A stretch of 64,000 bases of DNA, taken from positions 175,352-239,351 of the forward strand of contig CAWHPL010000001.1 in the NCBI GenBank assembly GCA_963831305.1, read 5' to 3'. Shown in pieces: positions 2,726-12,643 of the stretch. The position numbers and the translations under genes are program-made. A model generated the notes under the pieces. That model ran no database searches and was not told where the DNA came from. It saw only the letters and a program-made list of their open reading frames with translations. Within the stretch, counting starts at the first letter, position 1. Each line of letters begins with the position of its first letter. Origin of the DNA: an uncultured Chloroflexia bacterium. Its GTDB lineage: Bacteria; Chloroflexota; Anaerolineae; Anaerolineales; Anaerolineaceae.

Positions 2726-3361
2726 TTAGAAGGTTAGTTCTTCTTTTCCGGACAATTTTGCCTGAATACGCTCGACAACCGTATCCAGATGTTTGGACTT
2801 GTGGACGAAATCCAGGTCGTCGGTCCGCAAAGTCAACACGGGGCAAAGGTCAAAGTTGGCTACCCAATCTGTGTAGTAAGAATCGAGAAGCGTAAGATAA
2901 TCAGGGCTGATGGAAGTTTCGATCTCGCGACCGCGTTTTTGAATGCGTTTGATCAAGACTTCAACTGGGGCTTTTAGATAAATAAGCAAAGAAGGTGGAG
3001 GCAGATTCTTTGTAACCAGGCTAAATACTTGTTGGTAAGTTTGGTAGTCACGCTCATTGATGTTTCCCATGCTGCGTAATGCGCGTGCAAAAATGTAGGC
3101 GTCTTCGTAGATGCTGCGGTCAATAATGGCTGATTGGACATCTTCAAAAAGATCCAAATGCTGTTGGGCGCGGTGACCGAGGAAAAAGACCTGCAAATGA
3201 AATGACCAGGCTTTCATATTCGCATAGAAATCCGGCAGGTATGGATTATCAGCCACAGATTCATACGCAGTTTTCCATCCCAGCTTTTCCCCAATCCGTT
3301 CAGTTAACGAGGTTTTACCGGATCCGATGTTTCCAGCTACTAGAATCAGCCTTTTTTGCAT
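2726..3361 (-). CDS. deoxynucleoside kinase (dAK/dGK family)
   Basis: P-loop GNIGSGKTS, ERS-like DRSIYED, and a C-terminal lid RIQKRGREIE. AAGGAG RBS before the ATG at 3361. Confidence 0.8.
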   Translation of the reverse strand: MQKRLILVAGNIGSGKTSLTERIGEKLGWKTAYESVADNPYLPDFYANMKAWSFHLQVFFLGHRAQQHLDLFEDVQSAIIDRSIYEDAYIFARALRSMGNINERDYQTYQQVFSLVTKNLPPPSLLIYLKAPVEVLIKRIQKRGREIETSISPDYLTLLDSYYTDWVANFDLCPVLTLRTDDLDFVHKSKHLDTVVERIQAKLSGKEELTF

Positions 3362-3459
3362 GAGACACTCCTTCAAAATGGAATCAAAAGTAATTATATG
3401 CTATATCATCTTGTTTATTTTATAGGTCATGGGATAATTCATGCAAAGGAATAATCATC

Positions 3460-4773
3460 ATGAATTCATTTGAACAAAGACAATCGTTGTTCCCAATCAC
3501 TGCCACGGTGAATTCTGATGGCCAACTGGAAGTTGCCGGATTGACTTTATCAGCATTGACCAAAAAATATGGCACACCTCTCTATATCTATGATGCTGCG
3601 ACTATCATTGAGCAGGTTTCCAATTTGGACTTATTGTTGCGCGATAATTATGTAGGTACTTCTGCGATTGCGTATGCATCAAAGGCTTATTTCTCTTTGG
3701 CGTTTGCCGGGAAACTGGCGAAACTTGGAATTGGTGCCGACTTGATCACTATCGGGGATATCCGCACAGCCCAAAAAGCAAAGCTGGATCCTCAAAAACT
3801 CCATTTGCATGGCAATAACAAATCTGAGGAAGAGATAAAGGCTGCCCTGATTTGGGGGATAGGGGCGATCGTGGTTGACAGCCTGGATGAACTATCGTTC
3901 TTGGAGATGATTGCCGCTGACATGAAGACAGTTGCAAAGATCTGGTTGCGTATCACGCCTGACATTGCTGTTGATACGCATCGCCACATTCAAACCTCTC
4001 ACGCTGCTTCCAAATTTGGATTACATATATCCGACGGACAAGCCGGAAAAGCGATCAGACAGGCGATGAGCAGTAAATCTATTGATCTCGCAGGTTTGCA
4101 CACCCATTTGGGATCTCAATTGCGTGATACGCAGGTTTATGAACAAGCCATCGCGAAAATGTACTGCGTTGCTGCTGAAAATGACTTTGCCCCACGGGAG
4201 TTTTCTGTTGGTGGCGGGTGGGGTGTTCGTTATACCGAAGAAGACAAGCCGAATGATCCAGCGGAGTGGATTGAGGCGATTTCGCGGAGTATCGTAAGCG
4301 AGTGTGAACAGCGGGGATGGGCATTGCCACATCTCGTGATCGAACCCGGTCGGTTGATGGTTGCCAGGGCAGGGGTAGCGCTTTACACAATTGGTTCCCA
4401 GAAGCAAACCCCGGAGGGGCAAAACATCGTTGCGGTTGATGGGGGTATTGCGGATAACCCCCGCGTTGCACTTTACAGCGCAAAATACACAGCAATGGTA
4501 GCGAATAAGGCAAATGCAAAGAATGTGAAACACTCACGTGTTGTTGGAAAATTCTGTGAAACTGGCGATGTGCTGATTGATGAGGTTGACATGCCTGAGG
4601 TGGTTCGTGGGGACATTCTTGCAATTCCGGTTGCGGGGGCATATCAATTGAGCATGTCATCCAATTACAATTTTGCCACCCGACCCACCGTACTTTGGCT
4701 TGAAAACGCAAATGTGGAAGTGATGCAGGCGCGTGAACGTCCGGAAGATAGCGCGTGGTGGTCAAACGTGTAA
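3460..4773 (+). CDS. lysA: diaminopimelate decarboxylase
   Basis: 437 aa fold-III PLP decarboxylase: YASKA (PLP Lys), HTHLGSQ, GGGWGVRY, EPGRLMVA, CETGD, GAYQLSMSSNYN. Confidence 0.9.
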   Translation: MNSFEQRQSLFPITATVNSDGQLEVAGLTLSALTKKYGTPLYIYDAATIIEQVSNLDLLLRDNYVGTSAIAYASKAYFSLAFAGKLAKLGIGADLITIGDIRTAQKAKLDPQKLHLHGNNKSEEEIKAALIWGIGAIVVDSLDELSFLEMIAADMKTVAKIWLRITPDIAVDTHRHIQTSHAASKFGLHISDGQAGKAIRQAMSSKSIDLAGLHTHLGSQLRDTQVYEQAIAKMYCVAAENDFAPREFSVGGGWGVRYTEEDKPNDPAEWIEAISRSIVSECEQRGWALPHLVIEPGRLMVARAGVALYTIGSQKQTPEGQNIVAVDGGIADNPRVALYSAKYTAMVANKANAKNVKHSRVVGKFCETGDVLIDEVDMPEVVRGDILAIPVAGAYQLSMSSNYNFATRPTVLWLENANVEVMQARERPEDSAWWSNV

Positions 4774-4857
4774 TTGATCTAAAAGGAACTATTTCGCCAT
4801 ATTTGTGTTATACTCTTTAAGTTATAGAAAGAGTAATTAGTAAATCGCGCTTGGTCA

Positions 4858-4890
4858 AATACCCTGCCGGTTCCGGAAGGGTATTTTTTT
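4858..4890 (+). terminator. rho-independent terminator after lysA
   Basis: aataccct(gccggttccgga)agggtatt stem followed by T7. Confidence 0.75.
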
Positions 4891-4906
4891 GTGAAATTGG
4901 AGAAAA

Positions 4907-6578
4907 ATGAAGGCTTTTGAAGAACTGGGATTATCCCAGGAGTATTTGAGCTCAGTTGAAAAATTGGAATACACTGAGCCAACCCCGATCCAGATTGCGG
5001 CTATTCCGCCTTTGCTTGAGGGACGTGATCTAATCGGACAGGCACAAACTGGCACTGGTAAAACTGCAGCATTTATGCTGCCTTTGTTACAACGGCTGGA
5101 CAATTCTGTTTCTGGTGTAAAAGCATTGATTTTAGCGCCAACAAGAGAACTTGCAAAACAGGTTACTGACGCTGGAAAAGCACTTGCACAAAAAACAAAC
5201 TGTTAAGATTATCTCGGTTTATGGCGGGCAATCTTATTCAATTCAGTTGAGAGCATTGGAACGCGGTGTGGATGTGGTGGTTGGAACCCCGGGCAGGCTG
5301 CTCGATTTGATCCATCAGAAGCATCCTGGATTTGAGCCACGTAAGCACTTTGATCATTGACGAAGCAGATGAAATGCTGGCGATGGGGTTTATTGAAGAT
5401 GTTGAGTTGATCCTCCGCGAGTTATCGGATAAACGCCAGGTGGCTCTTTTTAGCGCTACACTACCGGAGCGTATCCGAAAACTGTCTGAACGGTATCTGA
5501 ATAACCCGGTGAAAATTGCCATCAACCCTAAGGCAATCACAGTTGCTGAAATTGAGCAGCGATGTTACCGCGTAAGAGAAGAATCCAAGATTTCGGCGCT
5601 AACACGCTTGCTGGAGATCGAAGACGTCAGCAGTGCGTTGATCTTTACCCGCACCAAGGCGAGAGCACAGGACCTTTCTGAGGATCTACTGCGCATGGGT
5701 TTTGCCGCCGATGCCCTGCATGGTGATTTGAACCAGAATCGCCGTGAGCTTGTGCTGAACCGTTTCCGTAATGGGACTGTGAAAATCCTGGTGGCGACCG
5801 ATGTGGCTGCCCGTGGTTTGGATGTGGCAAATGTAAGCCATGTGCTCAATTTTGATCTACCCGCTGATAACGATGATTATGTTCATCGCATTGGTCGAAC
5901 TGGCAGAGCTGGCAAGACTGGCATCGCCATTTCTTTCATCACGCCAAAGGAACGTAACTGGGCGAATCAGATCCAATCGTTCACCCGGCAACCGCTGCGT
6001 GAATCAAATCTGCCGGATGTGGCTGAGGTTGAGCAAAAACGCGCTGAGCGGCTTATGGATCGCATCGAAGGACAACTTCTGGCTGGCGCGAATTCTTCGG
6101 AACGCGCATTGATCAGCAAATTAGTGGAGCGCGGATTTGACGCTGCGTCTATCGCAGTTGGCGCCATCCGTCTGCTCAGAGCAAATGAGGGCGAGCTGAA
6201 AACCGTTGAGTTGAAGCTCCGCGAGCTGAGAGAACAGCGAGAAGCAGCTCCAGAATCCGAGCAAACAAGGCGCGCAAGTGGCCAAAATCGTACGACCAGA
6301 ATGGTAGAAAACCCAAAGGCGGTCATCGCTCCAATGAAGATGGAATGGTGCGCTTGTGGATGAACCTCGGCAACACCAATGGAATCCGACCGGGTGATGT
6401 GGTTGGAGCAATCGCGAGTGAATCCGGGATACCGGGGCAGGCGATTGGCGTGATCGACATCCAAAAGGATCATACATTCGTGGATGTCATGGAACAACAC
6501 GTGGCTGTGGTGCTGAGCAGCAGTGAAGGCAAGTATAAATTACGGGGTAAACCCGTGATCTTACGGAAAGCCGGCTAG
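4907..6578 (+). pseudogene. DEAD-box ATP-dependent RNA helicase (DeaD/CshA-like, DbpA-type C-terminal domain), disrupted by three frameshifts as sequenced
   Basis: ORF pieces 4907-5206, 5151-5360, 5332-6363 and 6345-6578 read as one protein. Motifs in order: [46 protein letters not shown], then GIRPGDVVGAI...IGVIDI. Frame changes occur at the A6 run 5190-5195, within 5313-5325, and somewhere in 6240-6345. Confidence 0.85.
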
Positions 6579-7891: not shown

Positions 7892-7974
7892 GATAGTCTC
7901 CTTTTTTATAACTATACCACTTTTGCTTTATTAGGACAATAATTGTCTAAATAATAAGGGATGGGATTACCCGA

Positions 7975-8066
7975 AAACCGAGAGGCGAAAAGCGAGAGGC
8001 GAGAGGCGAAAACCGAGAGGCGAAATACGAAAGACGAAAAGCGAGAGACGAGAGCCGAAAATACGG
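7975..8066. repeat. degenerate tandem repeat, about 14-nt unit cgagaggcgaaaa(c/g), almost T-free on the plus strand
   Basis: Read directly: cgagaggcgaaaag cgagaggcgagaggcgaaaac cgagaggcgaaata cgaaagacgaaaag cgagagacgagagccgaaaata. Confidence 0.8.
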
Positions 8067-8412: not shown

Positions 8413-8457
8413 AAAACTTGCCAATTTGGCAAGTTTTGGGAGAATTTGGCAAGTTTT
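8413..8457. promoter_or_regulatory. operator-like site: 12-nt inverted repeat plus a third direct copy
   Basis: aaaacttgccaa-t-ttggcaagtttt (8413-8437) is a 25-bp palindrome. The 15-mer aatttggcaagtttt recurs at 8423-8437 and 8443-8457, 20 bp apart. Confidence 0.5.
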
Positions 8458-8907
8458 ACTAAAAAGAAAATGGCATAATTGAAAAAAACAGAATCCAGAA
8501 CTAAAATCATTTAGAAAGGGAAACCGAAGGAAATAATACAAAAATCAATGAATTATCACCAATAGGAATCGATTTTCGAAGGTTGATTTAGCGCTAGGAA
8601 AATAACTGAAATATTCTGTTTATTATGCGTCGCGATGCACCCTACTAACTGGAAATTTGGAAAACTCAAATTTTGTTGGGTAAGCTGCAGGATAATAACT
8701 TTAGAAAAATATCCAAAAAACTGAAATTAAAAATTGTTATTAATTTGATAAAAGGTTAAGTTTTATAAAATTAGTAATATACTAATAATATAATTGATAT
8801 TACATGTGGCTAATTGCATTTCATAGAATTTCAGAGCTAAAAGTGTATAATAGTTATTTTCTGGTTGGGATATTTGTTATGCTTTAATTTTTGAAGGGGC
8901 GGTAAAT

Positions 8908-10428
8908 ATGAAATCTATATGCATATCCAATTTACGATCACTTCTCAATACTGGCGACATTGAACTTAAACCAGTAACTTTGTTAGTAGGAAGAAATAAC
9001 TCTGGAAAAAGTACATTTCTAAGATCCCTTCCATTATTGAGACAAAGTTACGAGAGTATTTCAACTGGTCCATTATTATGGTTCGGAAAATATGTTGATT
9101 TTGGCAGTTTTAATGTGGCTGTAAATAAATATGCTGAGGTTGACCCAATTATATTAAAATTTTCATTTAACCTTGAAGATTTAGATTTAGTGCCATTTAT
9201 AATAAATGAAAATAAGGTCTATGAAGTTAGTGTTATTATAACAATTTCTCGTTTGAAAAATGATGCATTTACAAAACAAATAGAGCTAATTATTTCTGAG
9301 CATATAATTAAAATGGTTTTTAATCAAAACCATACTATTGAATATTTAAAGGTTAATGAACATGAATTTCATGAGGGGTTTGAACAATTTTTATGGTCAT
9401 TATCAAGTGGACCAATTCCTGGAATTCGAGAAAAAAAAGAACGCAACGGAGAGAAAAATAGTTTCTTTCGATATTCAATGGACGATTTTAATATAGTATC
9501 AACAAGGTTATGGGGGAATTCCAGAAAAAGAGTTTCTCTAGGTCCATTATTTGAACTAACAGAAATTGAAATTGCCAAAAAATCAGAGATGATTAAGGAG
9601 CTTCAAAAAACGAAAAAAAGGAAATATGTTCAAAAAATGATGGGAAAGGATGAGCTATCCGACCTAGATTTTAGTGAAGCAGTTGACTTATTAATTGCCG
9701 ACAAGTCAAGACAAATATTAAGTCTGTGTAATGATTACTTATCTGTATTTTTTAAAAATGTAAAATATATAGCTCCAATTAGAGCGGCTTATCGTTATTA
9801 CCGATATCAAAACCTTTCTGTGGATGAAGTAGACTCAGAAGGACACAACCTTGCTATATACTTAAGGAATCTTAAAGAAAATAAATTAGAACCAGAATTT
9901 AGGAAATGGACACAGGAGTTTTTTGGTTTTCAACCAAAACTAAAAGAATACCAAGGTTTTTCCTCAATTCTAATTGAACAAGATAATTCAACAATAAATA
10001 TGGCAGATATGGGATTTGGATATTCACAAATGCTACCAATTATCACACAAGTATGGCAGGCTATTCATAATAAAAATCAAAAAACACGCAAAAATGCACC
10101 ACCAATTACTATAGCGATTGAACAACCGGAGCTGCATTTGCACCCACAGTTACAGGCAGACATTACGAAAGCATTATTAAGCATAGTCCAAACAGCAAAT
10201 AATGAAAACCGAAATGTAAAATTAATAATAGAAACCCACAGTGACATAATAGTGAATAAGATAGGAGAATTGATTTCAAAACGTTTGGTAAATAATGAAC
10301 TTGTAAATGTCTTGGTTTTTGAAAAAGGGCACAATGATAAAGTGTCAAGAATTACTGAAGCTTATTTTGATGATAACGGTTTATTACAAAAGTGGCCATT
10401 TGGATTTTTTGAACCTGATCCTGAATAA
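8908..10428 (+). CDS. ABC/OLD-type AAA ATPase (AAA_15/21 with DUF3696-like C-terminus), AriA/AbiLi-like
   Basis: 506 aa: Walker A GRNNSGKST, MGFGYSQMLPI, Walker B IAIEQPELHLHP, H-loop IIETHSD, tail KWPFGFFEP. AT-rich codon usage. Confidence 0.8.
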   Translation: MKSICISNLRSLLNTGDIELKPVTLLVGRNNSGKSTFLRSLPLLRQSYESISTGPLLWFGKYVDFGSFNVAVNKYAEVDPIILKFSFNLEDLDLVPFIINENKVYEVSVIITISRLKNDAFTKQIELIISEHIIKMVFNQNHTIEYLKVNEHEFHEGFEQFLWSLSSGPIPGIREKKERNGEKNSFFRYSMDDFNIVSTRLWGNSRKRVSLGPLFELTEIEIAKKSEMIKELQKTKKRKYVQKMMGKDELSDLDFSEAVDLLIADKSRQILSLCNDYLSVFFKNVKYIAPIRAAYRYYRYQNLSVDEVDSEGHNLAIYLRNLKENKLEPEFRKWTQEFFGFQPKLKEYQGFSSILIEQDNSTINMADMGFGYSQMLPIITQVWQAIHNKNQKTRKNAPPITIAIEQPELHLHPQLQADITKALLSIVQTANNENRNVKLIIETHSDIIVNKIGELISKRLVNNELVNVLVFEKGHNDKVSRITEAYFDDNGLLQKWPFGFFEPDPE

Positions 10429-10450
10429 CATCGATTAATGGGGAAAAAAT

Positions 10451-11554
10451 ATGATTTTTTACATTGATGATACATTAGTGTTAGATTTAGAAACAAACAA
10501 GCAACGTGACCAAAATGTAAAAGCAATTGAAAGCGTAATTACATCACAAATTCAGCTTAATCACTTTTTCTACTCTTCGAGGCAAAATCTTTTGAAGATG
10601 ATAGAAATTCCTGAGTTGAATGAAAGAATGCGAACTGAGGTAATTAGAGCTTATAACAGATTTTCTCAAAACGGATTTCTATATCAAATTCCAACAAGAA
10701 TTGAATTGATTTCAGGGCTAAACACTAAAAATATTACAAGAAATAATCATAGTATGGTAATTAGAATATCAACAGATTTATTTAATCAGTCGAAGTTTTG
10801 TGAAAGACCGATTTTCTTAACCGAAAATACTAATGATGGAAGAATATATAAGCAAATGGTTAATTACTATTTGCAAACAAGAAAATTACATAATATTATA
10901 AAAGCAGAATTTAAATTGGAAAATGGTGGGGGAAGTGTAACAGCAAACCAGTTGCGTTTCATTAGCAATGAAGGCGTAGATATTTGCTTTTGTATACTCG
11001 ATTCAGATAAATCTTTTCCAACAGATCGGATAGGTGAAACTTTAAAGGAGGCTTATAATGCGCTTAAACAGAATCAAGACTTTGGGTGTTGTTTAATAAT
11101 GGCTTTACAAGCAAGAGAATTAGAAAACTTATTACCTATTGGGTTATTACATAAACTATCAATCAGCAACGCTCAGTCAAAAGAGTTTATTTCTACGTTG
11201 GGTAATTTATCAACAGATGGAAAAAGATATGTGGATGTCAAATGTGGAATTTATGCGAAAAATTTTTGTTTGTCAACAAACACGAAGTTGCGGGATTTTT
11301 GGTTAGCCGAATTCAATTCTATTTATGATTGCGGGTTTAATAGTGGAGAATGTCTTCAAATCAGTTGTAAAGAAATACCTGGATTAGGTAAACATATAGT
11401 GCGAAATTTAATTGACAAATATGATAATACAGAAGGGTGGAAAATGATATTTGGTATTGTTGACAACGATCCATTTTGTAAAGCAGAATGGATTAAAATA
11501 GGAAATGAAATTTTCGAATGGTTTTGTAGTCCAATTTCGGTTAAGAACACATGA
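10451..11554 (+). CDS. Toprim/DUF4435-like putative nuclease partner (AriB/AbiLii-like) with extra N-terminal and Cys-rich C-terminal regions
   Basis: 367 aa, starting 22 nt after the ATPase gene. Ordered motifs FLTENTNDG, ENGGGS, ILDSDK (DxD), ARELENLLP. Confidence 0.6.
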   Translation: MIFYIDDTLVLDLETNKQRDQNVKAIESVITSQIQLNHFFYSSRQNLLKMIEIPELNERMRTEVIRAYNRFSQNGFLYQIPTRIELISGLNTKNITRNNHSMVIRISTDLFNQSKFCERPIFLTENTNDGRIYKQMVNYYLQTRKLHNIIKAEFKLENGGGSVTANQLRFISNEGVDICFCILDSDKSFPTDRIGETLKEAYNALKQNQDFGCCLIMALQARELENLLPIGLLHKLSISNAQSKEFISTLGNLSTDGKRYVDVKCGIYAKNFCLSTNTKLRDFWLAEFNSIYDCGFNSGECLQISCKEIPGLGKHIVRNLIDKYDNTEGWKMIFGIVDNDPFCKAEWIKIGNEIFEWFCSPISVKNT

Positions 11555-11580: not shown

Positions 11581-12643
11581 TTATATCAAGATACATATAT
11601 CTGACAAAGGTCTTAACAGATTTTGATTTTCATAAAAACCTTGGATTTCACTAGGTAGATGAGAAAAAGTAAAATCTCTAGTATTTGTTCTAGTAGAACG
11701 AAATATTATACTTTCAGCTCTTCGGCGTGATTTATACCGAATCAAATCTTCTATGATTGGCCAAGCAGCCTTGGCTTCAATTCTCATTTGTGTAAATGGA
11801 TTATTATATTTTTTAATTAAAGAACAAGCTAGAAGCCAATATTCATCATCTGGGTTGCTGTCAGACAACACTTTGGATAATGGCGGTAGGAATAATTGTG
11901 TGATCGATCCTATCAATAAAATCTGATAATTTCTCTATCCCTGATGGCAAAATTGTATTCTCGATCCACGAATCTTTGTACTGTTTATAAAGGAATTGTC
12001 CATTAACCTCATTGTATACTTCAATTTCAGGAGAGGTAAATATGGAAGATCCTGCAAAAAACAAAACAGCTTTGCCAAGGTTATGTTTATTTATTCCTTC
12101 GAAATATTCACCATTCCACATAGGTGCGAGAAGTTTTCCGTAAATTGGTTTGTTTTGAATTTTTGCATCAACCTCATCTATTAATACTAATGGTAATTTT
12201 CCATTCAAGTTTTCGGACTGAATTTTTCGAAAAAGATCGTCTAGATTTTTTATAGTCTTGAAAGCTGAAATTTGGAATTCTAGAAAAGAAGAATCAATAT
12301 TATTAGATTGGAGATCCGTTGCCAATTCATTGATTAAAAAGGATTTTCCACTTCCTGAAAATGCACCAATCAAAATGTTGAGTGGCCGTTTTTGCTTTCT
12401 ATAAGAAGTTGTTTGATAATTAATAATTTCGTTTTTAATTACTTGTATATTGTCACGAAACCCATCATTACAAGAAATAAATCTGCCAGCAATAGGTGTG
12501 TAAAGCATAGATATTTCGGAGGTTTTTTGATCATTTTTTAAATCCACAATACGCTTCAAAACATCAAATTTTGCCGATGCAATATACTCTTGTGAATTCT
12601 TTTTTTGTAAAACATGCAAACTCGTTTTAAACCCCTTTCCCAA
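11581..12643 (-). pseudogene. orphan AAA+ ATPase, apparently split by a frameshift near 11875-11900 (or ATPase plus an overlapping 111-aa ORF)
   Basis: ORF 11861-12643 has Walker A GAFSGSGKSF, Walker B PLVLIDEVD, LLAPMWNGEY and DFIDRIDHTIIP. ORF 11581-11916 continues in another frame from a TTG with PPLSKVLSD... The two overlap by 56 nt. Confidence 0.55.

Follow-up and report, generated by a model that had tools for sequence, protein, structure and literature searches.

A predicted ATPase and a candidate effector are encoded side by side in an AT-rich islet

The window analyzed here, a 64,000-nucleotide (nt) stretch of contig CAWHPL010000001.1 from an uncultured Chloroflexia bacterium, contains two plus-strand genes in direct succession, one for a predicted ATPase (gene 1) and one for a candidate effector (gene 2). 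According to the listing of open reading frames (ORFs) of the window, gene 1 spans 8908 to 10428 and encodes 506 amino acids (aa), whereas gene 2 spans 10451 to 11554 and encodes 367 aa, both with an ATG start. The intergenic spacer of 22 nt (10429 to 10450, plus strand) constitutes the operon junction and carries a GGGGA Shine-Dalgarno sequence, and a Shine-Dalgarno sequence of the GGGG type is found 8 to 9 nt before the ATG of each gene. The pair resides in an islet with a GC content of 0.29 to 0.32 (approximately 8.5 to 12.5 kb), compared to 0.44 to 0.56 on either side. The positions, lengths, and spacing of the two ORFs, as well as the AT-rich islet, are as described in the initial annotation of this stretch, and every motif quoted there for the two proteins was found in their translations.

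Gene 1 is predicted to encode an OLD-type ABC ATPase

The gene 1 protein matched Pfam families AAA_15 (5.6e-31) and AAA_21 (1.8e-17), and alignment of its family with ten OLD-family proteins by hhalign gave a probability of 98.8% (E value of 5e-17) across the ATPase domain. By sequence, gene 1 is therefore an OLD-type ATP-binding cassette (ABC) ATPase, the class to which it had been assigned initially. When the family profile was run against PDB sequences, Thermus OLD (3.9e-9) and the retron Eco8 OLD nuclease (5.5e-5) were retrieved along with weak matches to Rad50 heads, and AriA chains were not recovered at an E value of ≤0.01. The C terminus carries a DUF3696-like tail that scores just under the Pfam threshold (3.5e-4; 21.2 bits for a cutoff of 22 bits), and several homologues have a precomputed match to this family (PF12476). 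The best PADLOC match was NsnB of the Menshen system (4.8e-48), covering aa 219 to 502 only; further matches comprised PDC-M55A (5e-37), “AriA” (6e-34), HEC-03B, and many GajA models, and HEC-01A models matched more weakly (6e-14). Since the PADLOC “AriA” models share their lengths and match coordinates with Pfam AAA_15 and AAA_21, these matches are generic and are no indication of PARIS.

More than 1,990 homologues of gene 1 were found at an E value of ≤1e-10, the nearest being 39% identical to the window protein, and motif conservation was scored over 35 aligned homologues. In the Walker A motif GRNNSGKST (8989 to 9015, plus strand; aa 28 to 36), residues G28, N30, G33, K34, and S35 are invariant. 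The signature-like motif MGFGYSQMLPI (10009 to 10041; aa 368 to 378) is preceded by an invariant D367, contains G369, F370, G371, Q374, and P377 as further invariant residues, and shows GxG where ABC proteins have SGG. The H-loop IIETHSD (10225 to 10245; aa 440 to 446) is invariant at E442, T443, H444, and S445. The DUF3696-like tail (10291 to 10410; aa 462 to 501) includes WPFGFFEP, in which W496, P497, G499, and F500 are invariant, and the longer motif KWPFGFFEP spans aa 495 to 503. This tail may serve as a docking site for the effector, an analogy drawn from the complex predicted for NsnB and NsnC (PMC12065111). A hypervariable middle insert (9103 to 9765; aa ~66 to 286) lies between Walker A and the signature; its column majority is 19 to 43% (residues ~75 to 275), compared to 63 to 80% in the ATPase core. 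Its length ranges from 206 to 249 aa across homologues, and the consensus has no majority residue for most of the insert, which could form a sensor surface.

The Walker B motif IAIEQPELHLHP (10111 to 10146; aa 402 to 413) has a glutamine, Q406, at the position of the catalytic glutamate. The E405-Q406-P407-E408 quartet is invariant in 35/35 homologues, and its counterparts in alignments are EEPE in Thermus OLD and DEPE in P2 Old, which means that the catalytic position of this family is naturally a glutamine. The same E-Q dyad occurs in all 80 homologues taken from genomic loci (see below), a set that was partly chosen by the pattern EQPELHLH, so that only the 35 aligned homologues are unbiased in this respect. 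In ABC ATPases, replacement of the Walker B glutamate by glutamine allows ATP binding but cripples hydrolysis, and it is used experimentally to trap the ATP-bound state. The E393Q replacement in AriA had the same consequences, ATP binding being kept and hydrolysis impaired (PMC10802264).

The locus was also present in a 2.8-kb Logan contig from an independent sequencing run (ERR15459710), in which gene 2 is identical and gene 1 is called as two pieces of 215 and 279 aa, pointing to a frameshift variant or to faulty assembly in this data set.

Gene 2 belongs to a large family of three-domain proteins

The product of gene 2 (10451 to 11554) has no Pfam or NCBIfam family and no PHROGs match. Its sole PADLOC match was PDC-M55B (1.1e-7), aligning aa 125 to 271 with positions 103 to 246 of a 315-residue model; this model was also matched by 54 of 63 relatives, and by the family consensus at 8e-16. 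Although a word-indexed homologue search with gene 2 returned only the protein itself, an exhaustive HMMER search yielded 1,112 representatives (50% clusters) at an E value of ≤1e-3, 399 of them at ≤1e-10. Nearly all of these relatives are 350 to 390 aa long and are matched over their full length at 22 to 30% identity. The ~115 N-terminal residues and the Cys-bearing C-terminal third, which could not be placed in AriB initially and raised the possibility of a divergent or undescribed variant, are therefore features of the whole family, and that suspicion holds.

Conservation was assessed in a family alignment of 63 sequences and checked independently in 77 homologues from genomic loci. In the former, M1, E125, G159 to G161, and D186 are invariant, and G36, D184, E225, N226, P229, K264, G266, G313, W347, and W357 are conserved at ≥90%. 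In the latter, counting ungapped sequences, 72 of 73 retain E125, and 72/72 retain each of D184, D186, and E225; D129 is found in 69, with a glutamate in 4 more. On this evidence, the motifs FLTENTNDG (aa 122 to 130), ENGGGS (aa 157 to 162), ILDSDK (aa 182 to 187), and ARELENLLP (aa 221 to 229) are no chance occurrences. With the 63-sequence alignment as input, AlphaFold2 produced a model with a predicted local distance difference test (pLDDT) score of 93.5 and a predicted template modeling score of 0.92, whereas the model from the single sequence was unusable (pLDDT of 37.5).

Three domains can be delineated in this model. An N-terminal alpha/beta domain (10451 to 10786, plus strand; aa 1 to 112), absent from AriB, has the predicted secondary structure beta-alpha-alpha-beta-alpha-alpha-alpha-beta-beta-beta and retains G36 in 59/63 and H38 in 54/63 relatives; it found no library or hhalign match, including one PIN protein (P value of 0.11). 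The central Toprim-like core (10799 to 11137; aa ~117 to 229) carries E125-x3-D129, G159-G161, D184-x-D186, and E223-x-E225-N226. The C-terminal domain (11138 to 11551; aa 230 to 367) is helical, with helices at aa 230 to 358, and includes the motifs CGIYAKNFC (aa 265 to 273), CGFNSGECLQISC (aa 294 to 306), and FC...WFC (aa 342 to 359). A cluster formed by C294, C301, and C306 maps to 11330-11368 of the plus strand. Four C-terminal Cys columns are kept in 47 to 55 of the 63 relatives, the first of which is missing from the window protein.

The core of gene 2 is probably a Toprim-fold nuclease

Gene 2 had initially been labeled Toprim/DUF4435-like. The DUF4435 label did not stand: neither DUF4435 nor Toprim, OLD-like_TOPRIM (PF20469), or RloB (PF13707) of Pfam was matched by gene 2, the 63 relatives, or the family consensus, with E value thresholds for DUF4435 of ≤1, ≤0.1, and ≤10, respectively, while P2 Old, used as a positive control, matched OLD-like_TOPRIM at 1.2e-17. 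Likewise, no Toprim-type family emerged from scans of the consensus against Pfam, PADLOC, and PHROGs, and the PADLOC AriB model was matched by only 2/63 relatives (~1e-3) and not by the window protein. Run against PDB sequences, the family profile retrieved no OLD, GajA, or AriB chain, its only match being a borderline and probably spurious one to deoxynucleoside-kinase/NDUFA10, and it did not match the single P2 Old sequence. No OLD-like ORF was found in the retrieved loci, viral contigs scanned with P2 Old and a three-sequence Toprim alignment gave only close P2 Old relatives, and a word-indexed search with the P2 Old Toprim region gave 5 near-identical fragments only. These negative profile results are tempered by a calibration in which a profile of class 1 OLD Toprim domains detected the solved class 2 OLD Toprim domain only at an E value of 0.42 and AriB not at all; Toprim subfamilies are routinely invisible to each other at the level of hidden Markov models (HMMs).

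The Toprim reading is carried by conserved motifs, predicted topology, and profile-profile alignment. In the predicted structure, strands 1 to 4 of the central unit are followed by E125, the glycine triplet, D184-x-D186, and the ExEN motif, respectively, which is the order given in the Toprim definition summarized in PMC12065111. Against a template of three fragments (P2 Old, Thermus OLD, and GajA), hhalign aligned 25 columns with a P value of 4.2e-4 and a probability of 34%, placing the family glutamate on the OLD catalytic glutamate. With a more diverse template of 10 plasmid, phage, and archaeal OLD proteins, the signal rose to 68 columns (P value of 1.8e-4; probability of 48.5%), with E125 on the catalytic glutamate, GG on GK, and DSD on DxD, all in register. 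The OLD Toprim domain was again the best-scoring region when the full-length family was compared with full-length OLD. None of 200 column-shuffled templates of the three-sequence profile matched the observed score, and none of 150 shuffles of the 10-sequence profile reached the observed 26.2 (shuffles, 10.5 ± 2.0; maximum, 18.8). Higher P values were obtained with a reversed template (0.095) and when the N-terminal domain of gene 2 (0.037), its C-terminal domain (0.28), or the ATPase family (0.16) was compared with OLD Toprim. The active site of AriB is composed of E26, D30, D88, E90, and E122 (PMC10802264); gene 2 shares the E-x3-D spacing, and its Glu-to-DxD distance is 59 residues, versus 62 in AriB. 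Considering this remote similarity together with the AlphaFold2 model, we think it quite probable that the core of gene 2 has a Toprim fold and acts as a metal-dependent nuclease.

The two genes form an essentially obligate pair across phyla

We retrieved 80 loci from species-representative genomes by means of the 35-sequence gene 1 alignment, and a gene 1 relative was encoded in 527 of 599 pattern-matched stretches, corresponding to at least 527 loci. The family HMM identified a gene 2 homologue directly after the gene 1 homologue in 76 of the 80 loci. Even with the gene 2 sequence alone as query, a homologue was detected within a few bases of the ATPase gene end in 61 loci, where junctions range from overlaps to a gap of +17 nt, most of them between -4 and +13. 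In three of the four misses (L022, L071, and L077), the contig stops at the ATPase gene, leaving L072 as the only true exception. The co-occurrence that had been suggested as a check is thus borne out, and the pairing is essentially obligate. No third conserved gene accompanies the pair in the 80 loci, the biggest cluster of neighbors comprising 8 loci with variable positions, and the DGQQR motif of DUF262 was absent from the two nearest upstream genes in every locus.

The pair is present in Chloroflexota, Cyanobacteria, Bacteroidota, Bacillota (including Streptococcus mitis and S. infantis), Alpha-, Beta-, and Gammaproteobacteria, Myxococcota, Spirochaetota, Verrucomicrobiota, Acidobacteriota, and Longimicrobiales. 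It is also carried by plasmids of Ruegeria, Bacillus thuringiensis, Planococcus, Lacticaseibacillus, and Exiguobacterium, in which the partner is annotated as a hypothetical protein. The Pf-type filamentous Pseudomonas phage 62-2 (OR621022, locus L086) encodes the full pair at 2992 to 5628, next to a repressor, an excisionase, and a Dcm methylase; the depositors named its partner a “putative OLD family nuclease,” and this protein matches the family HMM at 7e-55.

In loci L001 to L065, we examined the closest gene on either side of the pair (111 proteins). These neighbors are heterogeneous, and many are housekeeping genes such as those for shikimate kinase, GidA, transketolase, and a tRNA synthetase, while a minority are of the defense type (AAA_15/21 ATPases, ResIII helicases, a C5 methylase, DinG, DolB, and PDC candidates). 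Its behavior is therefore that of a compact, mobile insert, and the pair is no constant member of large defense islands. In four loci of S. infantis and S. mitis (L046 and L052 to L054; ~8668 to 11540), genes for a Dcm-type cytosine methyltransferase and a 528-aa protein come after the pair, which in these oral streptococci looks like a restriction-modification neighbor.

Relationship to known defense systems

Among catalogued systems, the nearest relative of the pair is PDC-M55, likewise a two-gene combination of an ATPase and a partner, whose A and B profiles are partially matched by the adjacent genes 1 and 2. The A match covers aa 233 to 504 of gene 1, i.e., its C-terminal half (positions 135 to 402 of a 421-residue model), and the B match is confined to the core of gene 2, excluding its N- and C-terminal domains. 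Literature searches for PDC-M55, DUF3696 with Toprim, DUF3696 alone, and Pf prophages with OLD revealed no description of the family of this gene pair.

In the OLD family (P2 Old, Thermus OLD, GajA, and the retron Eco8 effector), the ATPase domain is homologous to gene 1, and the Toprim motifs align with the core of gene 2 as described above. However, ATPase and Toprim are fused in OLD, whereas here they are two ORFs separated by a stop codon and the 22-nt spacer, and they are also separate genes in the related loci where the partner was found. Gene 2 differs further by its added domains and by failing to match OLD-like_TOPRIM, and no GajB-type helicase as in Gabija lies beside the pair. The separate genes and the missing helicase led us to reject classical OLD and Gabija as identities. 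HEC-01 follows the same two-gene logic of an ABC ATPase with a separate Toprim protein, and its A model matches gene 1 as mentioned above, but gene 2 does not match the HEC-01B model. AbiL (RloAB), with which the pair had been grouped initially, differs in that gene 2 lacks an RloB match.

PARIS is activated by anti-restriction proteins (Ocr and Ptr) and cleaves tRNA. It resembles the pair as a split operon of an ABC ATPase and a Toprim-type effector, although an AAA_15/AAA_21 ATPase beside an effector is a feature generic to many systems. The acidic motif pattern of gene 2 and its spacing also recall the AriB active site, and the two systems probably share the logic of an ATPase that restrains a toxic nuclease. 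The AriA hexamer sequesters AriB and releases it upon sensing of a trigger (PMC10802264 and PMC11464382). In contrast to gene 2, AriB has its Toprim domain at the N terminus (from E26), followed by a helical bundle, and lacks both the ~115-aa N-terminal domain and the Cys cluster, while the core of gene 2 starts at aa ~117. Moreover, the Walker B glutamate E393 of AriA is required for PARIS defense (PMC10802264), whereas the gene 1 family has a glutamine.

Partners other than gene 2 were found next to distant ATPase matches on plasmids and phages, where they are of the Menshen, PIN, DUF2325, or PD-(D/E)xK-like type and not DUF4435. In P2-EC5 (AM157364, locus L085; 243 to 2913), which represents a P2-like phage hotspot, an AAA_15 ATPase of ~550 aa is accompanied by a partner of ~300 to 330 aa, and a pair of the same type lies on the Vibrio coralliilyticus plasmid p337 (locus L087; 1819 to 4441). 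These partners are unrelated to gene 2 and share a D..ExK-like motif (GELDLVIEDK and GSLDLVIEDG), which suggests PD-(D/E)xK nuclease effectors. A pAsa9-like plasmid of Aeromonas salmonicida (locus L082; 2577 to 5205) encodes another ATPase-effector variant, adjoining AbiEii and Hok/Gef genes. Here, the gene for a DUF3696 ATPase precedes those for a 177-aa PIN-type protein (VIDTNVL) and an RNA-ligase family member.

A candidate ATPase-gated defense operon

We propose, with a probability of about 60%, that the pair is a self-contained mobile operon resembling an OLD nuclease split in two and serving as an ATPase-gated phage defense. It is most likely an unnamed relative of the PARIS, Menshen, and OLD anti-phage systems. 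The case for defense rests on the homology of both halves to defense proteins, the hypervariable insert of gene 1, the patchy spread across phyla, and the carriage by plasmids and prophage. The class-level reading of the initial annotation, i.e., an undescribed variant of the ABC ATPase and Toprim theme, is thereby retained, but its DUF4435 and PARIS labels are not.

A mechanism can be sketched by analogy with PARIS (PMC10802264 and PMC11464382) and with the predicted NsnB4-NsnC2 complex of Menshen, in which paired DUF3696 tails clamp the N-terminal domain of the effector (PMC12065111). An ATP-bound oligomer of gene 1 would keep the gene 2 nuclease inactive, probably with the DUF3696 tail gripping the N-terminal domain of gene 2. 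A phage-derived trigger would then be sensed by the variable insert, and the conformation of the ATPase would change. The nuclease, once released, repositioned, or activated, would cut RNA/tRNA or DNA, and this cleavage would arrest growth of the infected cell. Given the natural E-Q dyad of Walker B, ATP in gene 1 is suggested to act as a structural latch and not as fuel.

Several points weigh against this proposal. Gene 2 goes unrecognized by the models of Pfam, NCBIfam, and PHROGs, and hhalign assigns its Toprim core a probability of only ~48%. A whole-chain Foldseek search of the gene 2 model against PDB and BFVD returned no significant match (best E value of 0.1), and AriB chains, with which a fold comparison had been suggested initially, were outside the top 50. 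The docking of the tail onto the N-terminal domain is drawn by analogy, and a PIN-like nature of that domain is not supported by hhalign. PDC-M55, the nearest catalogued relative, is itself only a candidate, one of 145 put into PADLOC by Payne et al. (bioRxiv 10.1101/2024.01.29.577857), and HEC-01 gave no defense in the assays of the same study. Finally, with neighbors that are mostly housekeeping genes and only in a minority of the defense type, guilt by association is at most moderate.

We also consider, more tentatively and with somewhat less than even confidence, that the pair could be the founding member of a sensor-less type of immune system, “split-OLD,” that is widespread and as yet unnamed. 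In it, a naturally hydrolysis-impaired ATPase would be both an ATP-locked clamp and, by way of its hypervariable insert, a direct phage sensor, gating an effector made of a novel N-terminal adaptor, a Toprim nuclease, and a Cys/zinc module. If true, such a system would connect the lineages of PARIS, Menshen, and OLD. Modules that combine an ABC ATPase with Toprim (OLD, Gabija, PARIS, and some Menshen systems) are a major theme of bacterial immunity, and to our knowledge, PARIS and Gabija are the only ones for which infection sensing and nuclease gating by the ATPase have been worked out in detail. The family described here is large (more than 1,100 gene 2 representatives and at least 527 loci) and occurs in many phyla, yet its effector has no family and is annotated as a hypothetical protein. 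As the invariant E-Q dyad corresponds to the usual ATP-trapping change, the family is a natural test of whether ATP binding without fast hydrolysis gates an effector. If validated, the pair would supply defense annotation tools with a missing system and clarify the link between Menshen-type and OLD/PARIS-type ATPases.

Competing readings

One alternative, unlikely in our view, concerns ancestry and is compatible with the mechanism sketched above: the pair may be a Menshen-lineage module that lost or never had NsnA, with the ATPase sensing infection itself. Gene 1 resembles the NsnB type in several respects, NsnB being its best match in the defense library and combining an AAA_15 domain and a DUF3696 tail with GxG in place of SGG and a noncanonical Walker B dyad, reported as “EN” (PMC12065111) and here EQ. 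The layout of gene 2, an extra N-terminal domain followed by a predicted nuclease domain, parallels that of NsnC, which consists of an N-terminal adaptor (an inactive PIN domain) and a variable effector, sometimes of the Toprim fold (PMC12065111). A genuine Menshen trio, DUF262-DUF3696-hypothetical, was even present among the distant matches, in Pantoea (L084). However, the gene 2 family HMM does not match a Pantoea NsnC, and neither of the Pfam families RloB and DUF4276 is matched by the gene 2 core. The N-terminal domain of gene 2 shows no detectable PIN likeness, either in the hhalign comparison with one PIN protein or among the Foldseek top 50, which contain neither PIN nor VapC proteins. 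Gene 1, at ~510 aa, is ~140 aa longer than the Menshen-type ATPases seen here (~365 aa) and contains the large variable insert, and the NsnB model covers aa 219 to 502 only. No NsnA (DUF262) gene lies upstream of the pair, and the DGQQR motif of such a gene was not found in the two nearest upstream genes of any of the 80 loci, for which reason the identity with Menshen itself was rejected.

A second alternative, which we consider quite unlikely, is that the core of gene 2 merely mimics Toprim through its acidic motifs and represents a Rossmann-like domain for ligand binding or regulation, with no nuclease activity. This would fit the absence of a curated profile, the hhalign probability below 50%, and the Foldseek results, in which the highest “prob” values went to generic Rossmann- or flavodoxin-like folds. 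Among the nonsignificant top ten of that search, however, were GajA (E value of 0.12), Thermus OLD (0.32), and retron Eco2 (0.36). Furthermore, three motifs align in register with OLD Toprim and with its spacing, the controls were negative, five acidic positions are near-invariant, gene 1 as the partner is an OLD-type ATPase, and Toprim subfamilies are known to be invisible to each other at the HMM level.

A nonimmune function, either as a toxin-antitoxin-like addiction or stabilization module of mobile elements or as an ATPase-nuclease pair for DNA repair or recombination, appears decidedly improbable. The pair is a small insert amid housekeeping genes outside large defense islands and is found on plasmids and a prophage, Rad50-type ATPases act with nucleases in repair and Rad50 heads are weak matches of gene 1, and PARIS itself formally behaves as a type II toxin-antitoxin pair (PMC10802264). 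Nevertheless, the close relatives of known role (OLD, Gabija, PARIS, Menshen, and the retron Eco8 effector) all act in phage defense, some neighbors are restriction or defense genes, and a hypervariable insert and patchy cross-phylum spread are typical of conflict systems.

A true but divergent PARIS, the class named in the initial annotation, is largely refuted and most improbable, for although two genes with an AAA_15/AAA_21 ATPase and a Toprim-like partner, the “AriA” matches of gene 1, and the 2/63 relatives matching AriB would suit it, DUF4435 is unmatched throughout, the “AriA” models mirror generic Pfam families and AriA was missed in the PDB search, and domain order, Walker B chemistry, and the fold search all point away from AriA and AriB, so that this identity was rejected.

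Other features of the islet and its surroundings

To the left of the islet lie lysA and genes encoding a DEAD-box helicase, DegV, and a small membrane protein, and to its right lie the genes of a class II ribonucleotide reductase and of NrdR. Its borders are marked neither by a tRNA or an integrase nor by flanking direct repeats, none of which was found, and no plus-strand ORF of ≥60 aa precedes gene 1 between 8350 and 8908. In addition to the pair, the islet contains two minus-strand ORFs that were absent from the initial annotation, neither of which is conserved beside the pair in other loci. The first (11861 to 12643; 260 aa) gives a weak AAA/P-loop signal and resembles the nucleoside triphosphatase part of plasmid proteins annotated as RyR-domain (36% identity; 5e-16). 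The second (11581 to 11916; 111 aa) has no matches and shares 56 nt with the first in a different frame; it could be a remnant of the same gene cut off by a frameshift.

Two repeated sequences were noted upstream of the pair. A purine-rich degenerate tandem repeat with units such as CGAAAAC and CGAGAGG, spaced 14 to 21 nt apart, marks the left edge of the islet (7958 to 8061). Approximately 450 nt upstream of gene 1 (8413 to 8457), a 15-nt palindrome without mismatches, AAAACTTGCCAATTT / AATTTGGCAAGTTTT, precedes another direct copy of AATTTGGCAAGTTTT and could be an operator or the leftover of an element end. Further to the left, the frame of the DEAD-box RNA helicase (4907 to 6578, plus strand) is split into four overlapping ORFs (4907 to 5206, 5151 to 5360, 5332 to 6363, and 6345 to 6578), which implies at least three frameshifts and is either a pseudogene or an assembly or sequencing error.

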